From an uncultured Gammaproteobacteria bacterium (lineage in GTDB: Bacteria; Patescibacteriota; Patescibacteriia; Magasanikbacterales; GWA2-37-8): a stretch of DNA of 64,000 nt. Positions 4,653 through 34,283 of this stretch are shown here, piece after piece (within the stretch, counting starts at the first letter, position 1; every line of letters starts with the position of its first letter). A program made the position numbers and the translations under genes. The stretch spans positions 3,182-67,181 of the forward strand of contig CAZEDL010000004.1 in NCBI GenBank assembly GCA_964510885.1, given 5' to 3'. Under the pieces are notes generated by a model. It saw nothing but the letters and a program-made list of their open reading frames with translations. It searched no databases and was not told the DNA's origin.

Positions 4653-6980
4653 CTAAATTCGCACACCAGTCGCCTTAATAGCCGCTAAAAAAGGCTCCAG
4701 CTCCGTCTCAAGAGCCTCTAATTCAGCATACTGTTCACGCATCGCTTGACTATCCCGGCGGGTGTAGGCTTGCCCAAAAGCCAATTGAATTGTTTTAAAC
4801 CTGACTTCGCTAGTCGCCCAAATATCAACTGGCAGCTGCGCTCTTCGAGACAAAATCGTCAATTTATCAAAAGGAAATTTGTTCTGAAAAGTACGATTTT
4901 TCCCAGACGAAAATTCATCACCATACATCATGGTCATAAGGCTGGCGATGCGAGGATCTTTTTCCTCTGGCTGAGAGTCTTTTTTAGCTAAACCTCGCGA
5001 CGTATCGCGGCCTGCGTCTTGGGGCTGACCGACAAGCTGTTCCAAGTGGGCTTCAGCATCAAGTAACAGTTCCACTGAACCCGTATATGCTTCAACTTGA
5101 TGATTAAAACTGTCAAAATTGCTAAATAACGCAGGGATCCCGTCTCCCTGGCGATAATTTTTATCAAACTGTTCATAGGTTTTTCTCAGTCCACCAGCAC
5201 TCTTAAGCCGATTTCGCCACTCATCACGCTGCTCCCGATCCGGGTGTTTACTGAAATAAGCCTCGGCTTTTTTATCTAAAGAAACCAAGCCTTCTTTAAC
5301 TGAACCGTACAAATATTGCATCAATTCATACGCTTCTGTCAGAGCTTTATCATATGCCGGATAAAAGGCATTCTCGTCGTGGGCAACAGTTCGGACCACA
5401 CGAGCCAAGTTACGCAAAGCCTCTAAACGAGATTGGTGGCTTTTCCCACCTTTCGTTTCCCAGCGCGCCTTACTATCGACAATCGTACTCGCCAACCGCT
5501 CAGTAGTTTTGACAATATGTTCGGAAGCGCACAAATACGCAGAGCCGCGGGCTTCGGCCCGAGCCTCTTGATCAAGTTTCTCAAGTTCAGTCACAAGGCC
5601 CTGCGGTATGCCAACCTCTTTAGCCGTCTTCGGGCGCGCTTTGTCTCCGGGTGCCGGATGCACCAACAAAAAGTCATCTATTGAAACTGTTGGCGGCAAT
5701 TCTGTGAACACTTTTACCCAATATCGAGCAAAGTAAACTTCGCCAATAATTGGAGGGGCTACCGTTCGATCTAGCAGCGACCCATCTTCGCCAATTTCAT
5801 CATCAGCTTTTATAGGGAATAAATCATTGGGAAAATCAGCGTGGTCGCGGGCTTGTTGCAAAACTGAACGAGCACCCTCAAGTTCAAGTTTTATGAGCGG
5901 CACCTCTCTTCTGTTCGGATCTGGAGCGGTCGAAGATAGCGCCACATCCGGAGTGGCTGGAGCTGGCGACGATTTTGGAGCAGCTGACGGTGCGGCGGCA
6001 ACACTCGGCGACAAAACTGCCGCTACCGGTGGTGGTGAAACTGGTACTAGAGACGGGGTAGGTACATCCACTGGTTGCGGCGTTACCGGGCTGGCAGAAC
6101 CTGCTGCCGACTGAGGAGTCTGAGCTGGTGCCGATGTACCGGGCAAAGGCGGCGGCTCTTCCGGTGGATCCTTCAAAAGATACCCAGCCCCAACAAAATA
6201 GGCCTCAAGGTCGGCTTGAGTAGCAATAAGTCTAGATCCATATACCGGCTTATTCCCTGTTCCCTTAAGTAACTCTGCATCCAAGACTCCGCCTAACTTT
6301 CGCACAAGAATGAGGATGTCTTTGGGATATATTATTTTCACTTGCTGGCCATCTTTGCTGCCAGGAGCACTCTCAACAATAGGGGGTGTTACCGGCGCCA
6401 CCCCGTTGCGCAGCAAAGAAAAGAACACTTCACTGCGCACCCCATTTTTCCTCAAAGTTATGACTAGATTATTTTTTGGGTCTTTGGGCATTTTATCGTC
6501 AAATCCCAAATGTATGTCGCCTTCGATCTTTATCGAAGGCGGCGCACTTACCACTTCAGGTGTTACAATCGCAGGACTTACCCCAGATACTGGAGCGGCA
6601 ACAACGGCAGTTTGCTTATTGTCCCAATCGTTCGGCAACGGCTGATCATGGAGCGGGTATTTTTCTAAACTGAAACATTCTTTAAATAAGGGCCCTAGCA
6701 ATACAAACAGCTGACGATGTTTTTTATGTAAATTTCTAATCGCTTTATCTTTTTTTCCAAGATCAGTAGTAACGCCTACGGCTATCCGAAGGCTAGGAAG
6801 CTCAGCAAGTTTCGCCTCCAAATCCTTCTTCAGTTGAGGAGATATATGGGGCTCAAGTTTTGCAATATCACCTGCAATCTCCTGGTCCTCAACCCTAAAC
6901 GTAACACCGCTTTCTACTTCAAATAGAAACAAATCAACAATTGGTCGGGGTTGCGGGCCACCTTCACGATTTTTGGCCAT
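4653..6980 (-). CDS. large hypothetical protein (775 aa) with central Pro/Ala/Ser-rich low-complexity linker
   Basis: Long ORF with no transmembrane segments and a central PPEEPPPLPGTSAPAQTP...PSAAPKSSPAPATP region. I recognised no domain. Confidence 0.5.
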   Translation of the reverse strand: MAKNREGGPQPRPIVDLFLFEVESGVTFRVEDQEIAGDIAKLEPHISPQLKKDLEAKLAELPSLRIAVGVTTDLGKKDKAIRNLHKKHRQLFVLLGPLFKECFSLEKYPLHDQPLPNDWDNKQTAVVAAPVSGVSPAIVTPEVVSAPPSIKIEGDIHLGFDDKMPKDPKNNLVITLRKNGVRSEVFFSLLRNGVAPVTPPIVESAPGSKDGQQVKIIYPKDILILVRKLGGVLDAELLKGTGNKPVYGSRLIATQADLEAYFVGAGYLLKDPPEEPPPLPGTSAPAQTPQSAAGSASPVTPQPVDVPTPSLVPVSPPPVAAVLSPSVAAAPSAAPKSSPAPATPDVALSSTAPDPNRREVPLIKLELEGARSVLQQARDHADFPNDLFPIKADDEIGEDGSLLDRTVAPPIIGEVYFARYWVKVFTELPPTVSIDDFLLVHPAPGDKARPKTAKEVGIPQGLVTELEKLDQEARAEARGSAYLCASEHIVKTTERLASTIVDSKARWETKGGKSHQSRLEALRNLARVVRTVAHDENAFYPAYDKALTEAYELMQYLYGSVKEGLVSLDKKAEAYFSKHPDREQRDEWRNRLKSAGGLRKTYEQFDKNYRQGDGIPALFSNFDSFNHQVEAYTGSVELLLDAEAHLEQLVGQPQDAGRDTSRGLAKKDSQPEEKDPRIASLMTMMYGDEFSSGKNRTFQNKFPFDKLTILSRRAQLPVDIWATSEVRFKTIQLAFGQAYTRRDSQAMREQYAELEALETELEPFLAAIKATGVRI

Positions 6981-6984
6981 ATAA

Positions 6985-7356
6985 TTATCCTCCAGACAGC
7001 TTAGTTAATACAAACCGTGTTATAGCATATGATACTGTCACGATTACAACCCCGATAATCGCTGTTTGCATCGTGTCTTTGGCGTTACTGATTGCATCTT
7101 CATTACCTTGCGAAGTCAACCATCGGAAACCGGCATACAGCATAAGGCCAAAAAAAGCAAAAGACAACACGACAAATACCGTCGGAACCACTCGAGTTAT
7201 TATGCCAGAAAAGGTATTTTGATCCCCGGTCTCGAACCCCACCGCCTTGCTGGTTTCGGTTAAGCCATAATCTCCGGCCAGAACAGGCGCCGCCATCAAG
7301 AGCACGCTAAAAACGCTTAAAAAAAATAAAAATTTTTTAAGAAAAAAATGGCGCAT
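6985..7356 (-). CDS. TrbC/VirB2-like (T4SS-pilin-like) small membrane protein, paralog 1
   Basis: Signal/TM1, then LYAGFRWLTSQGNEDAISNAKDTMQTAIIGVVIVTVSYAI, a motif shared with the nine-gene array at 9.1-14.0 kb. Start placed at the internal MRHFF Met. Confidence 0.55.
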   Translation of the reverse strand: MRHFFLKKFLFFLSVFSVLLMAAPVLAGDYGLTETSKAVGFETGDQNTFSGIITRVVPTVFVVLSFAFFGLMLYAGFRWLTSQGNEDAISNAKDTMQTAIIGVVIVTVSYAITRFVLTKLSGG

Positions 7357-7454: not shown

Positions 7455-7526
7455 GTCCTTGTAGTTCAATGGATAGAACGAGAGCCTTCTAAGCTCTAAA
7501 TCTAGGTTCGATTCCTAGCAAGGACA
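7455..7526 (+). tRNA. tRNA-Arg (anticodon TCT)
   Basis: Cloverleaf with acceptor GTCCTTG/CAAGGAC, anticodon loop CTTCTAA and T-loop GGTTCGATTCC. Confidence 0.85.
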
Positions 7527-7665
7527 CACCGAACATCAAAAATCCTAATGACTGATATCAAAACTTGCCAAAAGCTTTTTTTCACTGTAGTATCTTAAAA
7601 CTAGGTTGTCTAATTTGAAATTAGATATTAGAATTTTTGGTACTCCTCGCGAAGCGAAGAGATAT

Positions 7666-7738
7666 GGTGGCCATGGTATAATGGTTATTACGCGAGATTG
7701 TGGCTCTCGCAATACGGGTTCAATTCCCGTTGGCCACC
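7666..7738 (+). tRNA. tRNA-His (anticodon GTG) with encoded G-1
   Basis: An extra 5' G pairs with discriminator C73, the tRNA-His hallmark. Anticodon loop TTGTGGC. Acceptor GTGGCCA/TGGCCAC. Confidence 0.85.
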
Positions 7739-7740
7739 CA

Positions 7741-7839
7741 CATTGAACCGGGGAAGGTCTGGAAACCGGGAGGTTTCCACCTCTGCCGGGGAGAGCGCAC
7801 GAGAGGGCGGAAGCCCTTTCGTGGGAGCGAAGCGACGGA
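7741..7839 (+). other. tRNA-trailer conserved structured element, copy 1 (after tRNA-His)
   Basis: Starts CATTGAACC, complementary to the tRNA-His T-loop. Core is GGGGAAGG-GGAAACC[GGGA]GGTTTCC-...-GGGC[GGAA]GCCC-TTTCGTGGGAGCG. It is followed by a direct duplicate of the tRNA 3' end. About 85% identical to the copies at 37495 and 44701. Confidence 0.7.
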
Positions 7840-7915
7840 AATTCCCGTTGGCCACCCACATTGAACCGGGGAAAGTTTGGGAAGAGATTCCTGGCAACTC
7901 CCAATAACAGTAAAA
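7840..7915 (+). repeat. 34-nt direct duplicate of the tRNA-His 3' end plus the element start, then a degenerate partial second element copy
   Basis: 7840-7873 is identical to 7722-7755. The following GTTTGGGAAGAGATTCC resembles the element hairpin region. Confidence 0.6.
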
Positions 7916-7961: not shown

Positions 7962-9038
7962 ATGGCGGCAGCAAAGCAAAAAGTACTTATTCTCTCCTGC
8001 ACTGGCGGCCTTGGCCATATTAAAGCTGGAACAGCGCTCTATGAGAGGGCTGTTCAATGTTACCCGAATATCGATGCCCGTCATATTAATGTTCTTGAAT
8101 ACCTGTCGCCTCTTCTGCGACGCCTAATTGGCGGATCCTACGATTTTTGGCTTCGGCTTACCCCGTCGCTATACCATTATCTGTACACCCTCGATGATAG
8201 CGGGCGAGGCACCATCTCGACGATCGCCCATTCATTGGTCGGGGCCATACTAAAAAAACCATTACAAAATTTGATTACCGACTGTCTCAATTTTAAACCT
8301 GATCGAATTATCACGACACATTATCTGATACCTTTTTTATTAAAGAATCGGATAACCGCGCCCATAGACGTCGTGATAACTGACTATCGAGCGCATCAAG
8401 TCTGGCTACATTCAAATGTGCGCCGTTATTTTGTAGGTAGCGCCGAGACTGCCGCTGGCATAAAAAATCAAAACCAACCAATTATAGTTAGTGGCATCCC
8501 TATCAGCCCAGATTTTATTAAAAAAAATACAGAACCAAATAGCGCTGAGCTCAGCCGTTCAGATTCACCAACCATCCTGCTATTGGCCGGAGGCAGCGGG
8601 CTTATCGACACCACGCCATATGCTAGAAATATTTTAGAAAATATTAAAAACGCTCGTGTCATCGCAGTCGCAGGGAAAAACTACGAGGCATTATTCAAAA
8701 AATTAACCGCCCTGTCAGCCCTGTACCCTAATCTAAGTGTCCATACCTACCTTGATCCGATTGCCAACTGGATGAAACAAGCCGATATCATTGTAACCAA
8801 ACCAGGTGGATTAACGGTGACTGAAGCCGTATTCCTAAAAAAACCGCTCGTGTTAATCGGGCCTGCTCCTGGGCAAGAAGCAGCTAACGTTCGATTCGTT
8901 CTGAGCCATGGTTACGGCCAAAAGGCAGCCGCCGCGAAAGACCTATCAAGAGTAATTACCACTGAATTAAAAAAGCTGCCAGGGCAATCACGCGCAGAGC
9001 AGCTATTTCCTAACGACATAATTTTAAACGCAAACTAA
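7962..9038 (+). CDS. diacylglycerol glycosyltransferase (MGDG synthase/UgtP-like, GT28)
   Basis: N-terminal VLILSCTGGLGHIKAGTALYE resembles the MGDG-synthase/UgtP signature. The C-terminal GT28 fold includes a KPGGLTVTE motif. Confidence 0.75.
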   Translation: MAAAKQKVLILSCTGGLGHIKAGTALYERAVQCYPNIDARHINVLEYLSPLLRRLIGGSYDFWLRLTPSLYHYLYTLDDSGRGTISTIAHSLVGAILKKPLQNLITDCLNFKPDRIITTHYLIPFLLKNRITAPIDVVITDYRAHQVWLHSNVRRYFVGSAETAAGIKNQNQPIIVSGIPISPDFIKKNTEPNSAELSRSDSPTILLLAGGSGLIDTTPYARNILENIKNARVIAVAGKNYEALFKKLTALSALYPNLSVHTYLDPIANWMKQADIIVTKPGGLTVTEAVFLKKPLVLIGPAPGQEAANVRFVLSHGYGQKAAAAKDLSRVITTELKKLPGQSRAEQLFPNDIILNAN

Positions 9039-9068
9039 AAAACGTCTCGCTACGGCGGGACGTTTTTT
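9036..9068. terminator. bidirectional intrinsic terminator hairpin
   Basis: AAAAACGTCTCGC-TACG-GCGGGACGTTTTT lies between convergent genes. Confidence 0.6.
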
Positions 9069-9089
9069 AGAAACATTATACCACTTTAA

Positions 9090-9536
9090 TTAAGGCAGAA
9101 CCTTAAACTGAAAACCAGGCAACAACGAACTCGGGCCCGTGGGTTTTGTCACATAGTTGCTGTACACAAGCCCATTGAAAACAAATACCGTTATACCATA
9201 AGACATCAGTACAATGGCGAGGCCGATAATAGAATTACGGATGATCATTTTGGCCTTGATGATCGGTTCTTCTTCGCCAGCCGACGTGACCCATAAATAT
9301 CCAGCATACACTATTAAAGCCAAAAATACCGTCCCCAGCATCCCAAGCGCCGCCACAATTATTTTGGCAGCCACGAGTCGCGGATCAGAATTGCCAAGAC
9401 CGCTCGGAGCGCCAGCTGCGCCAAGCTGAGCATTAATATCGGAGCTAAGGCTGGTTTGAGAATGAACCACAGTTAGTGGGGCGCCAGCCAAAAGAATCGC
9501 TATACCCATCACTACCGCAAAAAGGTGTCTTTTCAT
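9090..9536 (-). CDS. TrbC/VirB2-like pilin-family membrane protein, paralog 2
   Basis: Signal peptide, then LALIVYAGYLWVTSAGEEEPIIKAKMIIRNSIIGLAIVLMSYGI. Confidence 0.6.
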   Translation of the reverse strand: MKRHLFAVVMGIAILLAGAPLTVVHSQTSLSSDINAQLGAAGAPSGLGNSDPRLVAAKIIVAALGMLGTVFLALIVYAGYLWVTSAGEEEPIIKAKMIIRNSIIGLAIVLMSYGITVFVFNGLVYSNYVTKPTGPSSLLPGFQFKVLP

Positions 9537-9562
9537 AAAAAAATAATTATGGCGCTGGCACG

Positions 9563-10114
9563 TCAAATATCTTTCAAACACACATCAGAAGGATTCGCGC
9601 AGGATCCCGGAACCAACGGCTTCTCTTTCGATGGTTCTGTGCCAGCCGCATAACATCTCCCTCCATTATTCTCGCAGCTCACTACCGGGGCATTGTTGCT
9701 AGCCGATCCTCCCACCTGATTAGCTCCGGTAGCAGACGTAATGCGATCAACCACAAAAATAGTAATGGCGTACGCTGCCATGGTGATAGCCAGCCCTATC
9801 AGAGCGGATCGAATAATATTCTTACCAGCATCAATTTCTCCTTCATCACCGCGAGAATTCATCCAACGGATACCTCCATACACGGTGAGAGCCAAAAATA
9901 AGGTACCTGACAAAGATAGTAAGGCTCGGATAATTTTACCAATCGTGGTCGACAAAGCCGTTTCACCGTTCGTGGTATCGTACCCAGCTCCAGCGCCAAT
10001 CTTTTGTGCAAGCCCTCCTGCTTCAAACCCAATATTTGGGGCTGCTGAGGCAAAATTTATCGAACCGGTCAACAGGCAAAGTATAGCAACGAAAGAATAA
10101 ATAAATTTTTTCAT
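9563..10114 (-). CDS. TrbC/VirB2-like pilin-family protein, paralog 3, with Cys-rich C-terminal extension
   Basis: Core LALTVYGGIRWMNSRGDEGEIDAGKNIIRSALIGLAITMAAYAI. C-terminal tail SCENNGGRCYAAGTEPSKEKPLVPGSCANPSDVC has 4 Cys. Confidence 0.6.
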   Translation of the reverse strand: MKKFIYSFVAILCLLTGSINFASAAPNIGFEAGGLAQKIGAGAGYDTTNGETALSTTIGKIIRALLSLSGTLFLALTVYGGIRWMNSRGDEGEIDAGKNIIRSALIGLAITMAAYAITIFVVDRITSATGANQVGGSASNNAPVVSCENNGGRCYAAGTEPSKEKPLVPGSCANPSDVCLKDI

Positions 10115-10124
10115 ATAATTTTAG

Positions 10125-10646
10125 TTATCTAACCGGCCCAGCACAGCATACAGTCGCCCCATCTGAGCGATCGGTACAGGAGCCGAGCGATATGGTTGAA
10201 TCTGAGCAATTTTGCGAACAGACCCCGCTATAATTTTGACATTGGGCTTCAGTTGTAATTGAAGCCTTCTCTGCCTCACCAGATCCTCCTGCGCTAAGTC
10301 GGCTGCCCACAAATGCCGTAATGGCATACGCCGACATTACGATCACGAGCCCAATTATCGCTGCCTTGATAATCTCTTTACCTTTCTCAATCTCACCCTC
10401 GTCACCGCGCGCGAGCATCCAGCGAATGCCACCATAAATAGTAAGCAGTAAAAAAATCGTACCGACCAACGATAATGCGGCAGTTACGATCGTCGCCACG
10501 GCAGGCGTCAATTCGCGCTGGAGCCCTGCCCGGCTACTCGGGCCAACCGCGCTATCAAGCTGATTTAAACCATTCTTGAACTGAGCCTGGGCAGACACTG
10601 GCACCAAAAGCATGATTGACAGCATTGCCCAAAAATATTTCTTCAT
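10125..10646 (-). CDS. TrbC/VirB2-like pilin-family protein, paralog 4, with Cys-rich C-terminal extension
   Basis: Core LLLTIYGGIRWMLARGDEGEIEKGKEIIKAAIIGLVIVMSAYAI. Tail QCQNYSGVCSQNCSDSTISLGSCTDRSDGATVCC has 7 Cys. Confidence 0.6.
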   Translation of the reverse strand: MKKYFWAMLSIMLLVPVSAQAQFKNGLNQLDSAVGPSSRAGLQRELTPAVATIVTAALSLVGTIFLLLTIYGGIRWMLARGDEGEIEKGKEIIKAAIIGLVIVMSAYAITAFVGSRLSAGGSGEAEKASITTEAQCQNYSGVCSQNCSDSTISLGSCTDRSDGATVCCAGPVR

Positions 10647-10668
10647 AGCCCTTTATTATTTGTCGTAA

Positions 10669-11100
10669 TTAAATACTAATCGTTTCAGGACCTGTAGGTT
10701 GAGTCACGGTATCGGTAGTAGTTGCCCCTAACCTATCAAACACAAACCGCGAAATCGCGTACGACGCCATCACTATCACAAGCCCAATCAAGGCAGCCTC
10801 CATGATATCTTTGGCTTTAGTGACAGCATCTGAATTGCCGCGAGCGAGCATCCAAGTGATCCCGGCATAAAAAATCAGAATAAAAAAGATTATTGCAAGC
10901 AGGCTTAAGAGTGCGGCCACTACTTTACCAATCAGCTGTGGCACATTGCCGGCCCCAGCTAACGTTTTTGGCACTAAACCACCCGTGGCTTTTTGAGTAT
11001 CGCCGAGGCCATATTTATCGCCATTGTCTGCCTGCACCATCGCCACCGAGACAAAGAGGGTAGCAAATAAAAATACCCCTGCCAAAAATATGCGTTGCAT
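10669..11100 (-). CDS. TrbC/VirB2-like pilin-family protein, paralog 5
   Basis: Signal peptide, then ILIFYAGITWMLARGNSDAVTKAKDIMEAALIGLVIVMASYAI. Confidence 0.6.
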   Translation of the reverse strand: MQRIFLAGVFLFATLFVSVAMVQADNGDKYGLGDTQKATGGLVPKTLAGAGNVPQLIGKVVAALLSLLAIIFFILIFYAGITWMLARGNSDAVTKAKDIMEAALIGLVIVMASYAISRFVFDRLGATTTDTVTQPTGPETISI

Positions 11101-11233
11101 AAGTCTTAATCACTAAAAAACTAGTAGGCAACTAATTATTGAAAGAGAGAAATAGTTAAAATAATTATTTTTCTCTACCAACAAAAGTACCGCGAAGGGG
11201 AGAGTTGAAACTCTCCCCCACGATACGTATACA

Positions 11234-11668
11234 CTAGACAGGTTGAGTCGTAGCGCTTACCAAGCTGCTTACCACAAAGTTGGCAATAGCGTATGCTGAC
11301 AAAATAATCGCCAAACCAATGATACCGCTGAAAATCATTTTCTTAGCTTCACCAACTTTATCATCATTTCCACCCGCGGTCATCCAGGTAAAACCACCAA
11401 TCAAAATGATTACAACTGCGACGATACCAAGGAGACCCATGAGCACCTTGATAATGCGAGCAATAGTGATACGGATGTCAGTACTGGTGAGGCCGGTGTT
11501 GGCTCCGTATTGGATACCCAAGTCACTTTCGTTAATTGGCTTTACTGGGCCGCTGATGCCTGGCACCTGGTCGCCACCCTGGGCGAACGTCGCCACTGGC
11601 ACCGCCATACTGCCGATCATCATAGCTCCCATCGCGAAGCTGACTAAGAACTGTTTGAATCGTGTCAT
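11234..11668 (-). CDS. TrbC/VirB2-like pilin-family protein, paralog 6
   Basis: Start placed at MTRFKQ, preceded by RBS GGAGGTGAAGAT. Core ILIGGFTWMTAGGNDDKVGEAKKMIFSGIIGLAIILSAYAI. Confidence 0.6.
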   Translation of the reverse strand: MTRFKQFLVSFAMGAMMIGSMAVPVATFAQGGDQVPGISGPVKPINESDLGIQYGANTGLTSTDIRITIARIIKVLMGLLGIVAVVIILIGGFTWMTAGGNDDKVGEAKKMIFSGIIGLAIILSAYAIANFVVSSLVSATTQPV

Positions 11669-11765
11669 ATCTTCACCTCCTTCCCAGTAGAAACAAATTG
11701 TTTCATATGTGATGTTACAAAATAAACTGATCTGACCCCAGTATAACATACTGGCGCGAAACTTG

Positions 11766-12206
11766 TCACGAACCTTTGCTGAGAAAAACCAAATACTGAT
11801 CGAGCAAGAAATAACTAGCCAAAACTAGACCTAAGCCAATGGCTGCCCAGAGCATAGTCATAGCACCGCTGTGGACACGGTCGGGATTACCAAACGACAA
11901 TAACCACGAAGCCCCCCCTTTAATAAATACGATAAGGGCCACCGACCCAACAATTCCGAGCGCACCCTTTATGACGATGCCGAGGATAGTAGTCACTTCA
12001 ACCGGTCTCGCCCCATTTGCGCCTGGCGCCAATGGATTTTCTAAACATTGACGGTCTTTAGGGCAATCCTTATTTGCACCTGGTGTCTCGTCGCTAGTTT
12101 GAGCAAACACCGGGGCGGCCAACAAACCAACAGCAAGTGTTGCTAACAGCACCAAGAGCATCCATCGTCTAGAAAACTGCTGTGCCAGAGAAATCATATT
12201 AAACAA
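11766..12206 (-). CDS. TrbC/VirB2-like pilin-family protein, paralog 7
   Basis: The N-terminal region carries CPKDRQC. Core FIKGGASWLLSFGNPDRVHSGAMTMLWAAIGLGLVLASYFL. Confidence 0.55.
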   Translation of the reverse strand: MFNMISLAQQFSRRWMLLVLLATLAVGLLAAPVFAQTSDETPGANKDCPKDRQCLENPLAPGANGARPVEVTTILGIVIKGALGIVGSVALIVFIKGGASWLLSFGNPDRVHSGAMTMLWAAIGLGLVLASYFLLDQYLVFLSKGS

Positions 12207-12222
12207 CTGATAAAGATAAAAA

Positions 12223-13305
12223 TTATGACGCGCCGGTCAGCAATTGAAACACAAATCCAACTAGTACATAGCTCGCTAAAATAGCCACCACCCCAAGACT
12301 CGTCCATACCACCATTCTCTGGGCCTGCTCCACGCGCTCAGAATTTCCAGCCGCAGTCATCCAGAGCACACCGGCAACAATATATAATACCAGCGTAACA
12401 CCTCCGAGAATGGCCAGCGGCACCGAAATCAACCACCCAATCAAAGCCGCCCCTAGTTTCGAAGAATTACTATACGAATTAAACCGGCTCATCTGATTAA
12501 GCTCGGCCACTTGGTCCTGAATATCTTTCAGTGAACCGGGAGCATCTTCATCCTCACCCTCTGCCGCAGTTTTTTCCGGCGCCGGGAGCTTGCTAAAATC
12601 CATCAATGCGTCACAATCACTAATTATTTTGCCGCCTTCTTCACGGTCTTTCACGTCATACGCCTTGAGCCCTTCGCCGCAAATGCGCAGAGCTGGATCT
12701 TTTTGATTACCATTAAAGCCTTTAACAAATTCCGAATTATAGCGGCGGCGCCAATCTACATGGCGTTCGCAATCAGAGGGTACACCATTAGGTTTATCCG
12801 ATGGTTTACAGCAGCAAAACGGCGGATTATTAGCTACAGCCGGCTTCATCGTGTACTTACTTTTCATCTCTTCAAGCAAATCATCTTCTTGTTTTTGCAC
12901 GACCCCTTCATATTTTTCTTTGGCAATTTTTTTGGATTCGACCGTACAGGTTTTCCCATCATAATTCAGAACCATTTTACCCCCCAAATAAAATAACCGA
13001 TTTGGATATTCATCAAAACGATAAAAACCTGCCCACGAGAACAGCGGGATATCGAACTTTTTTTTATAAACGTCAATTTTATACGTTTTGTTAACTTTAA
13101 AAAAACCCGGATTAATGCCGACCATTACTGTACAAACACCAAGACACTCCAGCGACTCAGGATCATTGCAGGCATCACCCATGCCAACCAACTCAGGGGC
13201 ATACAATTCTTCAAACTGCGCCGCTGAAGCCGCGACAGGAAGCAGCTGAATAGTAGCCGCAATAAGCATCAAAGCAATAGCGTGCCAGTTAAAAAATCTT
13301 CGCAT
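12223..13305 (-). CDS. Cys-rich extracytoplasmic domain fused to C-terminal TrbC/VirB2-like pilin module, paralog 8
   Basis: N-terminal domain of about 270 aa with roughly 12 Cys (CNDPESLECLGVC, PPFCCCKPSDKPNGVPSDCERH). C-terminal LVLYIVAGVLWMTAAGNSERVEQAQRMVVWTSLGVVAILASYVL. Confidence 0.55.
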   Translation of the reverse strand: MRRFFNWHAIALMLIAATIQLLPVAASAAQFEELYAPELVGMGDACNDPESLECLGVCTVMVGINPGFFKVNKTYKIDVYKKKFDIPLFSWAGFYRFDEYPNRLFYLGGKMVLNYDGKTCTVESKKIAKEKYEGVVQKQEDDLLEEMKSKYTMKPAVANNPPFCCCKPSDKPNGVPSDCERHVDWRRRYNSEFVKGFNGNQKDPALRICGEGLKAYDVKDREEGGKIISDCDALMDFSKLPAPEKTAAEGEDEDAPGSLKDIQDQVAELNQMSRFNSYSNSSKLGAALIGWLISVPLAILGGVTLVLYIVAGVLWMTAAGNSERVEQAQRMVVWTSLGVVAILASYVLVGFVFQLLTGAS

Positions 13306-13324
13306 AACACTAAATAAAAGCCAT

Positions 13325-14035
13325 TTATTTAAGGATAAACTCAGGATCAACACCAACAGCCGAGGCCAAAAACTTAATCAAAATATAACCACCAAACGCA
13401 ATCAATAGCCCAATCACCACCGCTACCAAAATATCTTTGGCCTGGGAAATTTTTTCTTCATTGCCTTGGGATAAAATCAATATAAAACCACCATACACAA
13501 ACATCACGAGCGATACTCCACCAATAATAGAAAATAAATACTGCGTAATTTTAATAGCCAGCGTAATAAAAATATTAACACTGCGACACTGGTCAGTTAA
13601 CTCATTTTGTAAAGCACAATCCGGAATTAATCGGCTGCGGATAATTGTCGATGGCTGACTAGCGCCCCCCTCAGCACCCTCGGTAGTGCCAAGCAACTCT
13701 TTAAGACGAGTGGTTTTTTCCTGCTCCCAACCTTTCAGCGCTGCCTGACAAATATCATCGGTCTGTGCATAGTTACAATCAAAAAATCGCTTACTAGTGG
13801 CGGTGTTGGAATTTTTTTCCTTCGTACAGTCGCTCTGAGCGGCCACCGTCGAACACTGAGCAATAAACTGAGCCTGGTCTTTCACCGTTTCAGCCGTCAA
13901 TTTAGTCAAATTTTCAAAACAAAAACAGCTGCCAGCTGCTACTGCCGCTGGAGCTGGGAAAAACAAACCACCGCAGCCAGCAGCAAATAATAATCCGAAT
14001 ATAAAGAGGCGAATCTGTGAAGCCATAGTCTTCAT
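13325..14035 (-). CDS. Cys-rich N-terminal domain fused to C-terminal TrbC/VirB2-like pilin module, paralog 9
   Basis: Signal peptide, then about 10 Cys (SCFCFENL, QCSTVAAQSDCTKEK, DCNYAQTDDICQ, DCALQNELTDQC). C-terminal LVMFVYGGFILILSQGNEEKISQAKDILVAVVIGLLIAFGGYIL. Confidence 0.55.
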   Translation of the reverse strand: MKTMASQIRLFIFGLLFAAGCGGLFFPAPAAVAAGSCFCFENLTKLTAETVKDQAQFIAQCSTVAAQSDCTKEKNSNTATSKRFFDCNYAQTDDICQAALKGWEQEKTTRLKELLGTTEGAEGGASQPSTIIRSRLIPDCALQNELTDQCRSVNIFITLAIKITQYLFSIIGGVSLVMFVYGGFILILSQGNEEKISQAKDILVAVVIGLLIAFGGYILIKFLASAVGVDPEFILK

Positions 14036-15435
14036 AAGGTTTGCTGAATTTTAGCGGCCGCCCGATTTAAAATATCTTGACGCCACTCAAGTAGTCGATT
14101 GGGATCAGGTGGCGCTTGCAGCCATTCATGAATCATATCACGAATAGCCCGGCTAGCGGAATCATAATTTTGCCCGCGGTACCAATTATCAGCGATCAAA
14201 AGCTGACCGACAAATGGCGCCAAATCTGGATCTTCAGATTGTTTTTTAATATTAGACCTGAGTGCCGTCGGGCGCTTTGTTTCAGTGAGATAGGTTTCAG
14301 TCGCGCTCGAATGAGTCAAATAATTAATGAATGCCCACGCCGCCGACTGTTTTGTCGATTTAAGCGTCACCGCATCTACATAATAGTTGGCCACATTCAC
14401 CGGGCGGGCCGGATCGAGCTGTAACAAGGGCAAAACCCCTACATTTAATTGTGGGGCGCGCGCCCTGATGACCGGCAAATGATAGCTGTACCCAAAGAAA
14501 AAAGCCGCCGACCCGCTCGTAAACGCATCAAGAGCAGGGCCCATTGACTCATTCCACGTATAGGTGTCACGGGTCGGATTGGCAAAATCAGTATAAAAAT
14601 TCATTACCGTCATAGCCGGAGTTTCTTCACCATTCCGGTTGGCAGTAAGATTAAAAATTGGCTGATTGCCAGTTTTCGATATAAAGCTAACACCGCTCTG
14701 TTCGAACAACAAGTAAATCAAATCGTCGCTTGCGGTAATGTTATTTCCGGTGCCAAAAGCCGCTCCGGCCTGGGTGATTTTGTTGGCGTCTTTGTCGTAC
14801 TTAGAGATTTTTTTTACCGCCGCCTGGAATTCTTCCCATGTTTTTGGTGGCTCCGCCACTCCCGCCCGATCCAGCAAATCCTTATTATAATACAAAGCCA
14901 TGGTATCAAGAGATAGTGGCAGGCCGTACACTTTTCCATCCATCACCACATCTTTCTTAACTGTCTGCACATATTCCCGGTCAACCTGGAGGGCATTAGG
15001 CAGCGGCCGGGCTACAGTCGTAATCGTAGTTTTAGATCCAATCGTTCCTTCGGTAGTCACCATCGTCGTATCCGGAACGCTCTCTGGCATCGGGGCCAGC
15101 TTCGTTTTAAGTGCACGCATGCTGCGGTTAGACACCGACACAATATCCGGCCCACGATCTTCGGCCAACGCCTCTAAGAGGCGTGGATAAAACTCATCCG
15201 CGCGCAATTGGCGCAAATTGACGGTTATATACGGGCGGTTAGACCGGTAAGTAGCGATCATCTTCTGCAAGGCATCGACATCATCAAATACGGTCCAATA
15301 CTCAAGCGTTATCGGTTTGGTGGCCGCTTGTTCAGTCCCAGACAGGCCTTTACAGCCAAAACCTGTCAACAATAAACAAAAAAATATCGAGCCAAATAAA
15401 ATACGCGCGCGACTAAGCTGCTTTTTCGATACCAT
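14032..15435 (-). CDS. ABC transporter extracellular solute-binding lipoprotein (family 1, sugar-type)
   Basis: Lipobox LLTGFGC. The 467-aa product has periplasmic-binding-fold length and composition. No permease gene is adjacent. Confidence 0.6.
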   Translation of the reverse strand: MVSKKQLSRARILFGSIFFCLLLTGFGCKGLSGTEQAATKPITLEYWTVFDDVDALQKMIATYRSNRPYITVNLRQLRADEFYPRLLEALAEDRGPDIVSVSNRSMRALKTKLAPMPESVPDTTMVTTEGTIGSKTTITTVARPLPNALQVDREYVQTVKKDVVMDGKVYGLPLSLDTMALYYNKDLLDRAGVAEPPKTWEEFQAAVKKISKYDKDANKITQAGAAFGTGNNITASDDLIYLLFEQSGVSFISKTGNQPIFNLTANRNGEETPAMTVMNFYTDFANPTRDTYTWNESMGPALDAFTSGSAAFFFGYSYHLPVIRARAPQLNVGVLPLLQLDPARPVNVANYYVDAVTLKSTKQSAAWAFINYLTHSSATETYLTETKRPTALRSNIKKQSEDPDLAPFVGQLLIADNWYRGQNYDSASRAIRDMIHEWLQAPPDPNRLLEWRQDILNRAAAKIQQTL

Positions 15436-15532: not shown

Positions 15533-16396
15533 TTATACCACACTCTTCAAATACTTCCTAAACTCGTCCTTCAAAGCCGGATCTTTAAGCGCAAAGTCAA
15601 CATTGGCACGCAGCCAGCCAATTTTAGAACCTGTGTCATAATAAATCGCGTCGTTAACTTCGCACGTATACACCGGGCGACGCTTCATCAGCGATTTTAT
15701 CGCATCTACCAGCCAAATTTCTCCTCCTTTGCCAGGTTTTAGCTTCTCTAAATCACCAAAAATATCCGGGGTCAGGACATAACAACCATGGGTTGCCAAA
15801 TTTGACGGAGCTTCACTTGGTTCGGGCTTCTCGACCAACGAAAAAATTTGGAAAATATTCTTTTCAATCTGTTTCACATCAGCAATCCCATATTTCGACA
15901 CCTCACTTTTCGGTACCCGGATCCCCGAAATCACGGGATCGCCATATTTTTCAAAGACTTCCAAGCATTGTTTGGTGCGTGGCGGATTCGAATAAATAAA
16001 TTCATCGCCCCAAATCACCACAAACGGCTCATCCCCCACCACGTCTTTGGCCGATAACACGGGCGTGCCATTTCCATACGGCCCCTTCTGGCGGATATAA
16101 ATAAAATTGGCCATCTCGGCAATCTCTTGAATCTGCTTACGTTGGCTGTCTTTTCCCTGTTTTTTCAGCCAATTCTCCATTTCGTAATTATAGTCAAAAT
16201 GATCCTCCACGGCCCTTTTACTGGCACCAGTGACCAAAATAATATCGGTGATACCTGATGCCACCAATTCCTCCACCACATACTGTATAATGGGCTTGTC
16301 AACAATCGGCAACATTTCTTTCGGTTGGGCTTTGGTGGCAGGTAAAAACCGCGTCCCAAACCCGGCCACCGGAATAACCGCTTTTCTAATTTTCAT
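15533..16396 (-). CDS. galU: UTP--glucose-1-phosphate uridylyltransferase
   Basis: MKIRKAVIPVAGFGTRFLPATKAQPKEMLPIVDKPIIQYVVEE is the canonical GalU N-terminus. Confidence 0.9.
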   Translation of the reverse strand: MKIRKAVIPVAGFGTRFLPATKAQPKEMLPIVDKPIIQYVVEELVASGITDIILVTGASKRAVEDHFDYNYEMENWLKKQGKDSQRKQIQEIAEMANFIYIRQKGPYGNGTPVLSAKDVVGDEPFVVIWGDEFIYSNPPRTKQCLEVFEKYGDPVISGIRVPKSEVSKYGIADVKQIEKNIFQIFSLVEKPEPSEAPSNLATHGCYVLTPDIFGDLEKLKPGKGGEIWLVDAIKSLMKRRPVYTCEVNDAIYYDTGSKIGWLRANVDFALKDPALKDEFRKYLKSVV

Positions 16397-16454
16397 ACAT
16401 ATTTTCTTTAAAAACAGGTAGCTGGAGTATACCAAATAGGCTTAAAAAGTCTAC

Positions 16455-24430: not shown

Positions 24431-25846
24431 ATGTCCGTTAACCAGATCATTGCCAAGAACACCCTGTCCCAGGTCGGGGGTAAAATAATCAGCACGCTGC
24501 TCGGGCTCGTGGCCGTAGCCATCATGACGCGCAGCCTGGGGGTAGAACAATTCGGTTGGTATGTTACCGCCGTAGGCTTCTTGCAATTTGTAGGGATTTT
24601 AAGTGATTTTGGCTTCATCATTACCACCACCAGCCTGTTGTCCGAACCGGCCTTTGATAAAGACAAGCTATTTAACACCCTTTTCAGTTGGCGATTTGTG
24701 AGTGCTCTGATATTCCAAGGGTTTGCTCCACTGATCTTTCTCGCCCTGCCCTATCCGGCACCGGTAAAAATTGGCGTCACTATTACCAGCATCTCTTTCT
24801 TTGCTCTGGCTATCGGCCAAGTATTTATCGGCTATTACCAAGCTAAGCTGCAAAATTATCAACAAGCAATTAGTGAAATTGTGGGTCGGGCCGCTCTCGC
24901 CCTCGGCGTAGCGCTCGCGGCCATAAGCCAAGCCGGATTTGTAGCCATGATGGTCGCCGTCACCCTGGCATCGGTAATTTCCACCACCTATTTGATAATT
25001 AAACACGGCCGGGTCACCTGGAGTTTTGACCGAGCCATCTCACGGGCCATTTTTATCCGCATGTGGCCAACCGCACTCTCAGTAATCTGTAACGCCTTCT
25101 ACCTGCAGGGCGACCGAGTCCTGCTACCATTGTTTGTGAGCCAAACCACCGTCGGGCTCTACGGCGCCGCCTACCGCGTGCTTGACATTATCATCCAGGT
25201 GGCCGCTCTAGTGATGGGGGTCATGATGCCGCTAGCCACCTTTGCCTGGTCACGGGGCCAGCTAGCTGATTTCAAAAAATATTTTCACCTCAGTCTAACC
25301 CTAGTTGCCACAATTCTATTTCCAGCCGTGGCCGGAATCTTTATTTTGGACGAACCAATCATGTCATTTGTGGCCGGAGCCGAATTTGCTAGTGCCGGAT
25401 ATATGCTCCGCTACCTGAGTCTCGCTATTTTCGGGATCTGTTTTGGGTTAGCATTTGGCTATTTGGCCCTGGCGATCAACCGTCAGCGCCAGGCACTACT
25501 CATCTACTTCTCCGATGCCCTTATCAGCACTCTGGCCTATATTATCTGTATTCGCTGGTGGGGGGTGAAAGGGGCGATTGGCGTCACAATTTTTTCTGAG
25601 CTGTACGCCGGAATCGGCCTCGCAATTATAGTTATTTCCTATACAAAACTGCGGCCGAATTTATTGACACTCGGTAAAATTGCGCTGGCCAGCCTGATCA
25701 TGGCTGGCTGCACCGCACCCTTTGCCAGGGCCCCCTTGCCCATTTCACTTAGCATCGGCCTCCTTAGTTACTCCGCCCTGGTAGTTATATTTCGAGTTAT
25801 TTCCCCCGCCGCCCTACGAGAACTATTAGTTGCCAAAAAGACCTAA
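24431..25846 (+). CDS. MOP-superfamily oligosaccharide/lipid-II flippase (Wzx/MurJ-like)
   Basis: About 14 TM helices. N-terminal KNTLSQVGGKIISTLLGLVAVAIMTRSLGVEQFG is typical of polysaccharide-biosynthesis flippases. Confidence 0.65.
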   Translation: MSVNQIIAKNTLSQVGGKIISTLLGLVAVAIMTRSLGVEQFGWYVTAVGFLQFVGILSDFGFIITTTSLLSEPAFDKDKLFNTLFSWRFVSALIFQGFAPLIFLALPYPAPVKIGVTITSISFFALAIGQVFIGYYQAKLQNYQQAISEIVGRAALALGVALAAISQAGFVAMMVAVTLASVISTTYLIIKHGRVTWSFDRAISRAIFIRMWPTALSVICNAFYLQGDRVLLPLFVSQTTVGLYGAAYRVLDIIIQVAALVMGVMMPLATFAWSRGQLADFKKYFHLSLTLVATILFPAVAGIFILDEPIMSFVAGAEFASAGYMLRYLSLAIFGICFGLAFGYLALAINRQRQALLIYFSDALISTLAYIICIRWWGVKGAIGVTIFSELYAGIGLAIIVISYTKLRPNLLTLGKIALASLIMAGCTAPFARAPLPISLSIGLLSYSALVVIFRVISPAALRELLVAKKT

Positions 25847-33433: not shown

Positions 33434-33907
33434 CTAATAAGCGATCACACTGATAGCCAGTGCTGGATTAAGGTGGTCATGAAAAAAGTAGGTACCGGCT
33501 TGTTTGAACGTCACTTTATAACCTTCATCAGCGCCAAAGGCTCCTGATTCTACTCCAGTGCCAGGGTCGGTATGACCATGATTTCGATCATAATCATCGC
33601 CTTGGCCTTCGGCGATATTATGAGTTTTGCCATCTTTACTATTAAACTGGACTACGCCACCAACCGGAATCAAAACCGTGTTTGGCTCGGCCCGATCAGG
33701 CAGCAAATCAACCGTTTGAAATAGCGGACGGGTCGGAACCGTAGCGGATGGCTGCAACTTAGCATCTGCCGCACTCGGGCGCTGGTAGGCATGTCTTGCC
33801 CCCACAAACCCTACCCCCATGGCCAACAAAAGGAGCGCCAGATATACTCCTCTTTTTTTTATTAGATCAGTATAGTCAGTCACAAACAATAGCAGCTTAT
33901 TCGACAA
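33434..33907 (-). CDS. cupredoxin-like protein lacking the Cys ligand (FHDHLNP in place of HCEPHPYM)
   Basis: TM anchor. C-terminal GTYFFHDHLNPALAISV aligns with the copper-site loop of the neighbouring cupredoxin, but Cys is replaced by Asp. Confidence 0.4.
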   Translation of the reverse strand: MSNKLLLFVTDYTDLIKKRGVYLALLLLAMGVGFVGARHAYQRPSAADAKLQPSATVPTRPLFQTVDLLPDRAEPNTVLIPVGGVVQFNSKDGKTHNIAEGQGDDYDRNHGHTDPGTGVESGAFGADEGYKVTFKQAGTYFFHDHLNPALAISVIAY

Positions 33908-34283
33908 CTTCTACCGTTCCTTTCATATACGGATGCGGTTCACAGTGGTATGGGAAAACTCCCACAGTGTCAAAGGTATAGCTATACGTTTCGTTCTGTC
34001 CGAAAAAGGCGCTGGCTGGGCCGGTGCCACTATCTACCGTCACCGTGTGTTTGGCCACATCTTTGTTGGTCCAGGTCACAGTCGTGCCTTTCTTCACCGT
34101 AAGGGTAGCTGGGCCATAGGCATACTTTTCAATCGTCACCGCATTCGCTGCCTGAGGAGCGGTGGCAGTCGGCGCGCCATCCTCTGGCTGCGTAGTCGCC
34201 GTCGGAGCAGTTGCGCCACAGCCGCTCATCACGAGCATCAAACCAAACATTGCAACCACACTTAAGCTTTTAGCATTCATCAT
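33897..34283 (-). CDS. blue-copper (plastocyanin/amicyanin-like cupredoxin) lipoprotein
   Basis: Lipobox LMSGC. Type-1 copper ligands occur at AKHTVTV ... YHCEPHPYMKGTV. Confidence 0.65.
   Translation of the reverse strand: MMNAKSLSVVAMFGLMLVMSGCGATAPTATTQPEDGAPTATAPQAANAVTIEKYAYGPATLTVKKGTTVTWTNKDVAKHTVTVDSGTGPASAFFGQNETYSYTFDTVGVFPYHCEPHPYMKGTVEVVE

Follow-up and report, generated by a model that had tools for sequence, protein, structure and literature searches.

Tandem arrays of VirB2-like pilin genes have already been published in Patescibacteria (PMC10633639, PMC12102498). As described by Wang 2023 (PMC10633639), the T4SS (type IV secretion system) cluster of Southlakia epibionticum holds a series of predicted pilins required for epibiotic growth. 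In 383 assemblies of Patescibacteria, a survey by Quinonero-Coronel 2025 (PMC12102498) rendered 441 VirB2 arrays that comprise 2-11 genes, with a mean identity of 25%, and proposed a role of these arrays in adapting to different hosts; the array findings are repeated in a 2025 review (PMC12857230). How members of the candidate phyla radiation (CPR/Patescibacteria) recognize their hosts and attach to them is largely unknown, and the one genetic study, in which a T4SS with a VirB2-like array was essential for epibiotic growth, left open the roles of the many pilins. Here we describe a nine-member array of VirB2-like pilin genes found in a stretch of 64,000 nucleotides (hereafter the window; contig CAZEDL010000004.1 of assembly GCA_964510885.1, positions 3,182 to 67,181). 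What is new in this locus is the fixed order of the nine subunits across a whole lineage, the position-specific modules with even numbers of cysteines (Cys), which evolve fast and recombine, the presence of a candidate major subunit (W6), and a conserved genomic context that is not that of a T4SS.

According to the list of open reading frames (ORFs), eight genes lie back to back on the minus strand between positions 9090 and 14035 (W2-W9), and a separate ninth gene, W1, is found at 6985-7356. These minus-strand genes are present essentially where the original prediction, made from the sequence of the window, had placed them; its count of nine consecutive genes plus a tenth was a miscount, since a hidden Markov model (HMM) built from the family found exactly nine members in the 64-kb window and no tenth. 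The names W1-W9 follow the paralog numbers 1-9 of that prediction, a numbering that fits only if the gene at 6985-7356 is number 1. From the first gene of the array to the detached one, and with the score of each protein against the Pfam family PF18895 (T4SS_pilin), the array reads as follows.

13325-14035, minus strand: W9, 8-Cys alpha/beta module at the N-terminus behind a signal peptide, then a linker and a VirB2-like helical hairpin (29 bits)
12223-13305, minus strand: W8, signal peptide, N-terminal domain of about 260 amino acids (aa) with 10 Cys, pilin module (24.7 bits)
11766-12206, minus strand: W7, short motif CPxxRQC(L)xNPLAP at the N-terminus of a pilin module (29.3 bits)
11234-11668, minus strand: W6, plain pilin module, no Cys (38.6 bits; TrbC E 6.8e-4)
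10669-11100, minus strand: W5, pilin module followed by a short tail free of Cys (31.8 bits)
10125-10646, minus strand: W4, pilin module and C-terminal 6-Cys module C-x6-C-x3-C-x9-C-x9-CC (48.3 bits)
9563-10114, minus strand: W3, pilin module and 4-Cys tail, C-x6-C ... C-x6-C (33.2 bits)
9090-9536, minus strand: W2, pilin module followed by a tail free of Cys; this gene closes the main block (22.9 bits)
6985-7356, minus strand: W1, detached ninth pilin module, plain in this genome (27.3 bits)

All nine array proteins match PF18895, with E-values from 1e-12 to 9e-5. Seven of them score above the gathering score of 26.6 bits (27.3-48.3 bits), and the two that fall just below it, W2 and W8, are aligned over the same 60-70 residues as the other paralogs; nine adjacent matches to one small family rule out chance. 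The family was also present in all 120 W4 homologues among the matches listed, and NCBIfam gave only sub-threshold matches, to the 'pilin-like conjugal transfer protein' NF045849 of a Mycoplasma integrative and conjugative element (ICE). An alignment of the nine proteins shows a common core, some 70 residues long, in which G, G, G and Y are invariant, and the consensus ...YGG..WM.S.GNE..I..AK.I...A.IGL.IV..SYAI..FV, which confirms the shared motif that had been predicted, and the HMM matches support the predicted assignment to T4SS_pilin, a VirB2/TrbC-like family abundant in Patescibacteria. The nine proteins carry ordinary Sec-type signal peptides, as judged by eye from their sequences. Identity between paralogues ranges from 23 to 44%. 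Genes in tandem, or with one non-pilin gene between them, and of low mutual identity are what defines the VirB2-like pilin arrays of Patescibacteria, and the genes described here have both properties.

With a W6 alignment as query, a scan in which each species was represented by one genome rendered 39 related loci (given below as L-numbers). Where their titles are informative, they read Ca. Magasanikbacteria, Magasanikiibacteriota or Patescibacteria, which bears out a Patescibacteria origin of the window; in Table S1 of PMC12102498 this lineage corresponds to the GTDB class ABY1. Many third-party annotation (TPA) records of metagenome-assembled genomes (MAGs) in the ENA that carry the locus (L003-L011 and others) are titled 'uncultured Gammaproteobacteria bacterium', and this title on loci of Patescibacteria type is almost certainly a taxonomic mislabel at the level of the record.

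In the two closest relatives (L001 and L002) every paralogue of the window has a strictly collinear, one-to-one orthologue: genes at the same position score 132-241 bits against each other, with 38-84% identity, and genes at any other position 30-110 bits. The order galU, SBP (the gene of a solute-binding lipoprotein), W9, W8, W7, W6 (sometimes duplicated), W5, W4, W3, W2, GT28, W1, rpsO, NYN, pnp is kept in about 35 species. The subunits form an ancient and fixed set, distinct from one another, and variation is limited to their extensions. A 'diversified cassette', as the array had been called, is not what the collinear orthologues and the common order of some 35 species describe, and because of this strict orthology and constant order the set cannot be regarded as a cassette of fast gain and loss.

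These data bear directly on an interpretation that the 2025 survey offers for Patescibacteria arrays (PMC12102498), namely that the genes, in the way proposed for the VirB2 paralogues of Bartonella and Anaplasma, encode interchangeable major pilins, expressed alternatively for evasion of host defences or for switching of host range. The low identity between paralogues (23-44%) would agree with it, and so would the gain, loss and exchange of tails between positions described below. However, genes at each position have orthologues in distant relatives to which they are far closer than to their own paralogues, and gaps of 10 nucleotides (nt) or less, or overlaps, point to co-expression rather than to alternative expression. 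Invertible or recombination elements were not seen either, although no search was aimed at them. A variation cassette is therefore rejected by the strict orthology, and we consider it improbable for this locus.

The Cys residues of the family are concentrated outside the pilin core, with 12 in the 21,291 residues of the cores (0.06%) as against 4.9% in the extensions. Among the family members with two or more C-terminal Cys, 167 out of 169 have an even number, as expected from obligate disulfide pairing. Both the restriction to the extensions and the even counts support the earlier claim that the extensions are extracytoplasmic and disulfide-rich. Their conservation is also very different from that of the cores, which are 44-94% identical between orthologues, whereas most of the Cys-bearing extensions are 7-38% identical.

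N-terminal Cys-rich modules are confined to the first three genes. That of W9 almost always has 8 Cys (median 8 N-terminal Cys over 31 orthologues), seven of them invariant in 12 homologues; the window protein has 8 in its mature part and one more in the signal peptide. For W8 the figure is 10 here and 6-24 in orthologues, within an N-domain of 190-430 aa. The original prediction had given about 10-12 Cys for both proteins, and on the whole its Cys counts are close to those found. Besides itself, the W8 N-domain has only three detectable homologues in a set of 1.84 billion representative proteins, and these are without exception W8 orthologues. We also observed that residues 64-108 of this domain weakly match (E 6e-6) five repeated stretches of a giant protein of 2911 aa, P0019. 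The predicted CxxxxC of W7 is present as CPKDRQC, the motif is kept in the L001 and L002 orthologues, and elsewhere W7 orthologues have N-extensions of up to 234 aa with 2-26 Cys.

C-terminal Cys-rich tails are borne by W5, W4, W3 and W1, their presence depends on the genome, and they reach 350 aa and 32 Cys. The W3 tail has the four Cys that had been predicted, and the W4 tail has six rather than seven. W5, Cys-free in the window, has orthologues with tails of 4-12 Cys (4 in L001, 6 in L002). W1 is plain in the window, and its orthologues often have very large Cys-rich C-extensions; examples are the orthologues of L011 (protein of 476 aa, 30 Cys), L023 (358 aa, 32 Cys) and L014 (379 aa, 26 Cys), in which Pfam matches the pilin module and nothing else. 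Pilin modules with a C-extension of 220-350 aa and 26-32 Cys, again free of Pfam domains, were found at L011:14209-15639, L023:14173-15249, L014:5284-6423 and L016:10839-11864. The orthologue of W2 is clear in L001 and L002, with 61-67% identity.

Several extensions resemble those of other positions. The W4 tail is similar to the tail of the W5 orthologue in L002, and the W3 tail to those of the W4 orthologues in L001 and L002. The W7 orthologue of L001 (2329-3006; the same gene is L004:2329-3006) has an N-module of W9 type, with CFC...C...C and 80 bits to W9, which is evidence of module shuffling between paralogues. A six-Cys module, C..GG.C...C...G.C...CC, recurs in 31 proteins, sometimes in tandem. 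It had been considered that the extensions might turn out to be common domains of known function, and the Pfam and homology searches did not bear this out. The window proteins had no Pfam match outside the pilin core, the isolated tails and N-domains rendered no credible Pfam family at E-values up to 10, and of ten very large Cys-rich extensions of relatives none was matched by Pfam except that of L027. This W7-type protein (L027:9018-9932) has a 26-Cys N-extension with a match to DUF7107 at E 4e-8 and a weaker one to the EB module, and it is the sole extension with a Pfam match among those scanned.

Structures of W9 and W4 were predicted with AlphaFold2 (AF2). In the W9 model (12 sequences, mean pLDDT 74) a signal helix is followed by an alpha/beta module made of a sheet and a helix (residues 35-119, pLDDT 80-91), which a disordered linker connects to a helical hairpin at 153-226. 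The W4 model (46 sequences, mean pLDDT 76) begins with a signal helix, its hairpin spans residues 46-121, and the tail behind it is formed by a short helix and three strands (pLDDT 77-84).

The W4 tail brings up another explanation, that the C-terminal Cys-rich tails are released as defensin-like antimicrobial or host-modulating peptides, the pilin module being their export carrier. The six-Cys spacing C-x6-C-x3/4-C-x7-9-C-x9-CC is one that we take to resemble the beta-defensin pattern, the short helix and three strands of the W4 model would suit it, and Defensin_beta was the sole Pfam family that surfaced for any tail (E 0.07). This match, however, extends over 11 residues of the four-Cys tail of W3 and has 13.6 bits, the cut-off being 21, and the W4 tail gave none, so that the Defensin_beta HMM does not identify the tails as beta-defensins. 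Moreover, no cleavage site was identified, the W4 tail is not cationic, the number of Cys in many tails is 4, 8 or 12 or goes up to 32, and the N-terminal modules would be left unexplained. We judge the release of such peptides to be very improbable, and for the 'bacteriocin-like cargo' of the original prediction there is no positive evidence beyond a Cys spacing.

W6 stands apart from the other members in several respects. It is the most conserved of them, with 83-84% identity to its orthologues and 81-93% in the core over six relatives, and it is duplicated in several relatives. In the window, the gaps are of 10-26 nt within W9-W8-W7 and within W5-W4-W3-W2, and of 97 and 133 nt on the two sides of W6; across the related loci W6 is flanked by gaps of about 90 and 66 nt, those at other positions not exceeding 10 nt. 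A GGAGG Shine-Dalgarno sequence lies 7 nt ahead of the W6 ATG, and the following signals were found around W6 and at the end of the main block.

11740-11769, minus strand: promoter-like site before W6, GTGACA-18-TATACT with TG (extended -10), 10 of 12 matches, on consensus match only
11187-11226, minus strand: GC-rich attenuator- or terminator-like hairpin just past the W6 stop, with stem GGGGAGAG/CUCUCCCC, in a region with a z-score of -5.7
9032-9071, no strand assigned: bidirectional hairpin of terminator-like type where the W2 and GT28 genes converge, AAAAAACGUCCCGCC...GAGACGUUUUUU, -18.7 kcal/mol

Strong 3' hairpins follow 54% of the W6-type genes and 46% of the W2-type genes, which end the block, in the related loci, and about 10% of the genes at most other positions. 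Since W6 is plain, most conserved and separately expressed, it is taken as the major building block. This pattern is what would be expected of the gene of a major subunit inside a pilus operon, and W6 can be considered a candidate for that role.

Around the array, Pfam matches confirm the neighbours named in the original prediction (a GT28 glycosyltransferase, a sugar-binding lipoprotein, galU and a flippase). Together with two tRNA genes, they are the following.

15533-16435, minus strand: GalU-like UTP-glucose-1-phosphate uridylyltransferase (Pfam NTP_transferase, E 3e-31)
14032-15435, minus strand: orphan solute-binding lipoprotein, SBP_bac_1/8 (Pfam SBP_bac_8, E 3e-25)
7962-9038, plus strand: MGDG-synthase/GT28 glycosyltransferase, located within the array (Pfam Glyco_tran_28_C, and MGDG_synth with E 7e-17)
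24431-25846: Polysacc_synt flippase (Pfam), about 10 kb from the array
7455-7527 and 7667-7739, plus strand: tRNA-Arg(TCT) and tRNA-His(GTG), between W1 and GT28

The galU gene is found in the matching position in about 30 related loci, the SBP gene lies directly upstream of the array in all related loci, and in most of the twelve related loci that are long, W2 and W1 have a GT28 homologue between them. The stop codon of the SBP gene overlaps the start of W9 (TTATGA), so that the lipoprotein is co-translated with the array. Three further ORFs of the window deserve mention. One of 119 aa at 7545-7904 is spurious, as it overlies the tRNA-His gene. A proline-rich ORF of 775 aa with no Pfam match (4653-6980, minus strand) begins 4 nt past the W1 stop and looks like a lineage-specific insertion, since rpsO directly follows W1 in every related locus examined. 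Finally, a secreted cupredoxin/plastocyanin-like copper protein (33897-34283, minus strand; Pfam Copper-bind, E 4e-12) is encoded in a lineage usually described as being without a respiratory chain.

Classical VirB2 is encoded by a single small gene without added domains. When the profile of the family was aligned by hhalign with Agrobacterium VirB2, whose sequence had been checked against the Protein Data Bank (PDB), an E-value of 3.5e-4 and a probability of 37% were obtained over 71 collinear columns that span the whole mature pilin, with the G-I-x-W-M motif aligned. A Foldseek search of the W4 model against 350,542 PDB chains placed the VirB2 of the Agrobacterium T-pilus at ranks 1, 2 and 4 (23-24% identity) and the archaeal conjugation pilin of Aeropyrum (8dfu) at rank 7 (TMt 0.64), none of them significantly. 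The Aeropyrum pilin also appears, without significance, in the list for W9, and for the N-terminal module of W9 the same kind of search rendered nothing significant in the PDB. The VirB2-like assignment is in this way weakly supported beyond the name of the Pfam family.

Our preferred interpretation, in which confidence and doubt are evenly balanced, is that the nine VirB2-type subunits build one heteromeric surface structure by means of an unlinked, monoderm-type T4SS, with W6 as the major subunit and the others displaying modules. The locus would encode nine distinct Sec-exported, two-helix pilin-like subunits of VirB2/TrbC type, and cleavage of the signal peptide would leave in the membrane a helical hairpin that, from its likely topology, has both ends outside the cell, so that N- and C-extensions alike would be extracytoplasmic and could form disulfides. 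Extraction and assembly by an unlinked VirB4-TrsD-VirB3 T4SS could then give rise to a single heteromeric filament or stalk. In it, W6 would be the major building block and the other eight would be low-abundance 'modular' subunits, N-terminal modules being carried by W9, W8 and W7, and C-terminal ones by W5, W4, W3 and W1, either in this genome or in relatives. The fast-evolving, disulfide-stabilised modules might thus be shown outward for recognition of the host surface or attachment to it. Polymerization, dependence on a T4SS, the roles of major and minor subunits and host binding are steps that we infer.

That the lineage does have a T4SS can be seen in GW2011_GWA2_37_8 (GCA_000992085.1, locus L014), for which VirB4, TrsD and VirB3 are listed as KKQ41280-82 in Table S3 of PMC12102498. 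The array of this genome, made of the eight PF18895 genes KKQ40372-79, is located on contig US58_C0021, a contig other than that of VirB4-TrsD-VirB3. The rows of Table S3 for this assembly include one unrelated VirB2 match only, and KKQ40372-79 are not listed (PMC12102498), which means that this type of array was missed by the neighbourhood-based survey and that arrays far from virB4 are under-counted.

A number of observations weigh against the assembly of the subunits by a T4SS. VirB2/TrbC pilins in the strict sense are encoded with a T4SS, and this is not the case in the window or in the flanks of the related loci. A Pfam scan of 39 window ORFs, the nine array proteins included, detected no VirB4, VirB6, VirB11, type IV coupling protein (T4CP) or other T4SS domain, in agreement with the absence of VirB4 and VirB11 reported by the original prediction; nor does the ORF list contain any ORF with the size and look of a T4SS ATPase. 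In none of the 39 related loci was a T4SS component found closer than 10 kb to the array. The array being unlinked to T4SS genes, its functional tie to such a system is indirect. With regard to the proteins themselves, the best score against TrbC (PF04956), that of W6, is 20.2 bits with a cut-off of 27.9 (E 6.8e-4), the Foldseek E-values of the T4SS pilins for W4 are 1.1-4.9, which is not significant, and a sequence-profile search of the PDB with the nine paralogues rendered no pilin, only chance transmembrane matches. The fold, a hairpin of two helices, is simple and can also come about in membrane proteins with no relation to these, and we know of no filament ever seen for the PF18895 family. 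In addition, it may be difficult for N-domains as large as that of W8 (about 260 aa) to find room in a helical lattice of VirB2 type except at its tip.

Many of these observations are shared by the main rival explanation, to which we assign a limited probability. It could be the case that there is no polymerization, and that the hairpin is a membrane anchor for disulfide-rich ectodomains, encoded in a T4SS-independent envelope operon together with GalU, the SBP and a glycolipid synthase. At every locus examined the array is unlinked to T4SS genes, its surroundings are those of envelope genes, with the SBP translationally coupled to W9, UniProt names the orthologues only 'integral membrane protein', and the homology to genuine VirB2 is weak. 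An anchor, on the other hand, would leave unexplained why eight to twelve hairpin paralogues, with cores up to 94% identical, are kept in a fixed order, and why the plain W6 is the most conserved member and is separately expressed. Besides, in Saccharibacteria (PMC10633639) the PF18895 family is located inside the T4SS cluster and is essential there.

The related loci also raise the matter of type IV pili (T4P). Upstream of galU, three conserved genes are present in relatives (L005:1425-5234, and at the same place in L006, L011, L016, L017 and L034). N_methyl is found in two of the encoded proteins, one of about 600 aa that also has CarboxypepD_reg domains and one of about 205 aa, and the third, of about 460 aa, has no Pfam match. 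The three genes were considered as possible T4SS machinery and rejected as such, since two carry the N_methyl motif of type IV pilins and the third has no Pfam match. A Magasanikbacteria pilin with PF13620, cited among the examples of modular type IV pilins in Raynaud 2021 (PMC8179133), is of the same kind as the gene with N_methyl and CarboxypepD_reg. The presence of these genes, one of them with CarboxypepD_reg domains, could suggest that the subunits of the array belong to a T4P system. However, neither the nine proteins nor any other ORF of the window has a class III signal (prepilin) motif, G-F/M-T/S-L-I/V-E, a Pfam match to N_methyl was not obtained, and the genome of the window keeps the array at a locus that lacks the upstream type IV pilin-like genes. 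Given the missing prepilin motif and the Sec-type signal peptides, a type IV pilin identity is rejected, and we regard it as effectively refuted and hardly credible.

Returning to the interpretation as a heteromeric T4SS-type structure, the locus suggests a division of labour between a conserved plain subunit and a fixed set of subunits with variable, disulfide-stabilised outer modules. The subunits with extensions would be testable candidates for determinants of host specificity, and a gene for the major pilin is predicted. The locus also illustrates that surveys restricted to the neighbourhood of virB4 miss large conserved arrays. In its boldest form, which we put forward tentatively and with more doubt than conviction, the proposal would be that these are the first natural 'modular' T4SS pilins, forming a Magasanikbacteria-wide heteromeric filament of nine subunits in which plain W6 is combined with rapidly evolving, recombining, disulfide-knotted modules, the recurrent six-Cys defensin-like knot among them, by which an epibiotic CPR bacterium would recognize its host, and which is served by a distant T4SS.

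Agrobacterium VirB2 and RP4 TrbC (T-pilus structures 8fai, 8exh and 8cue) have in common with the predicted build of the proteins described here a signal peptide followed by two hydrophobic helices. The array differs from Agrobacterium VirB2 in that it is not linked to a virB operon, the similarity is statistically weak and there is no evidence of cyclisation. With beta-defensins and other six-Cys knots, the W4-type tail shares six Cys ending in CC, a similar spacing and a predicted short helix with three strands; unlike beta-defensins, in which disulfides pair C1-C5, C2-C4 and C3-C6, the module is fused to a membrane protein, and it gives no significant sequence match, so that this is a resemblance only.

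The closest counterparts are the Southlakia genes SEML1_0006-0019 and the arrays of the 2025 survey, which have the same PF18895 family, the same tandem layout and a similarly low identity between paralogues (about 25% there, 23-44% here). They likewise belong to monoderm ultrasmall bacteria and have no relaxase in their context. In contrast to those arrays, the one described here is far from virB4 and is found in a fixed galU-SBP...GT28...rpsO-pnp context. Most of its members also have position-specific Cys-rich extensions, which are not mentioned in the main text of PMC12102498, where 'cysteine' has one unrelated match, nor in the pilin passages of PMC10633639 and PMC12857230; a search of the open-access literature rendered no paper on Cys-rich or disulfide features of CPR pilins.

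As to the modular build, the nearest likeness is with PilB and PilC, the modular type IV pilins that Streptococcus sanguinis has (Raynaud 2021, PMC8179133), in which a functional module is grafted onto a small polymerization module and is probably displayed at the tip, with a plain major pilin and several minor ones beside them. There, however, the pilin fold and the machine are unrelated to those considered here and the modules are known ones (vWA, lectin), whereas the modules of the array are unclassified, disulfide-rich and placed at either end of the pilin core. Finally, the VirB2 clusters of Bartonella and Anaplasma likewise consist of divergent tandem copies, but those copies are thought to be interchangeable variants, whereas the members of the array described here are positionally fixed orthologous subunits.

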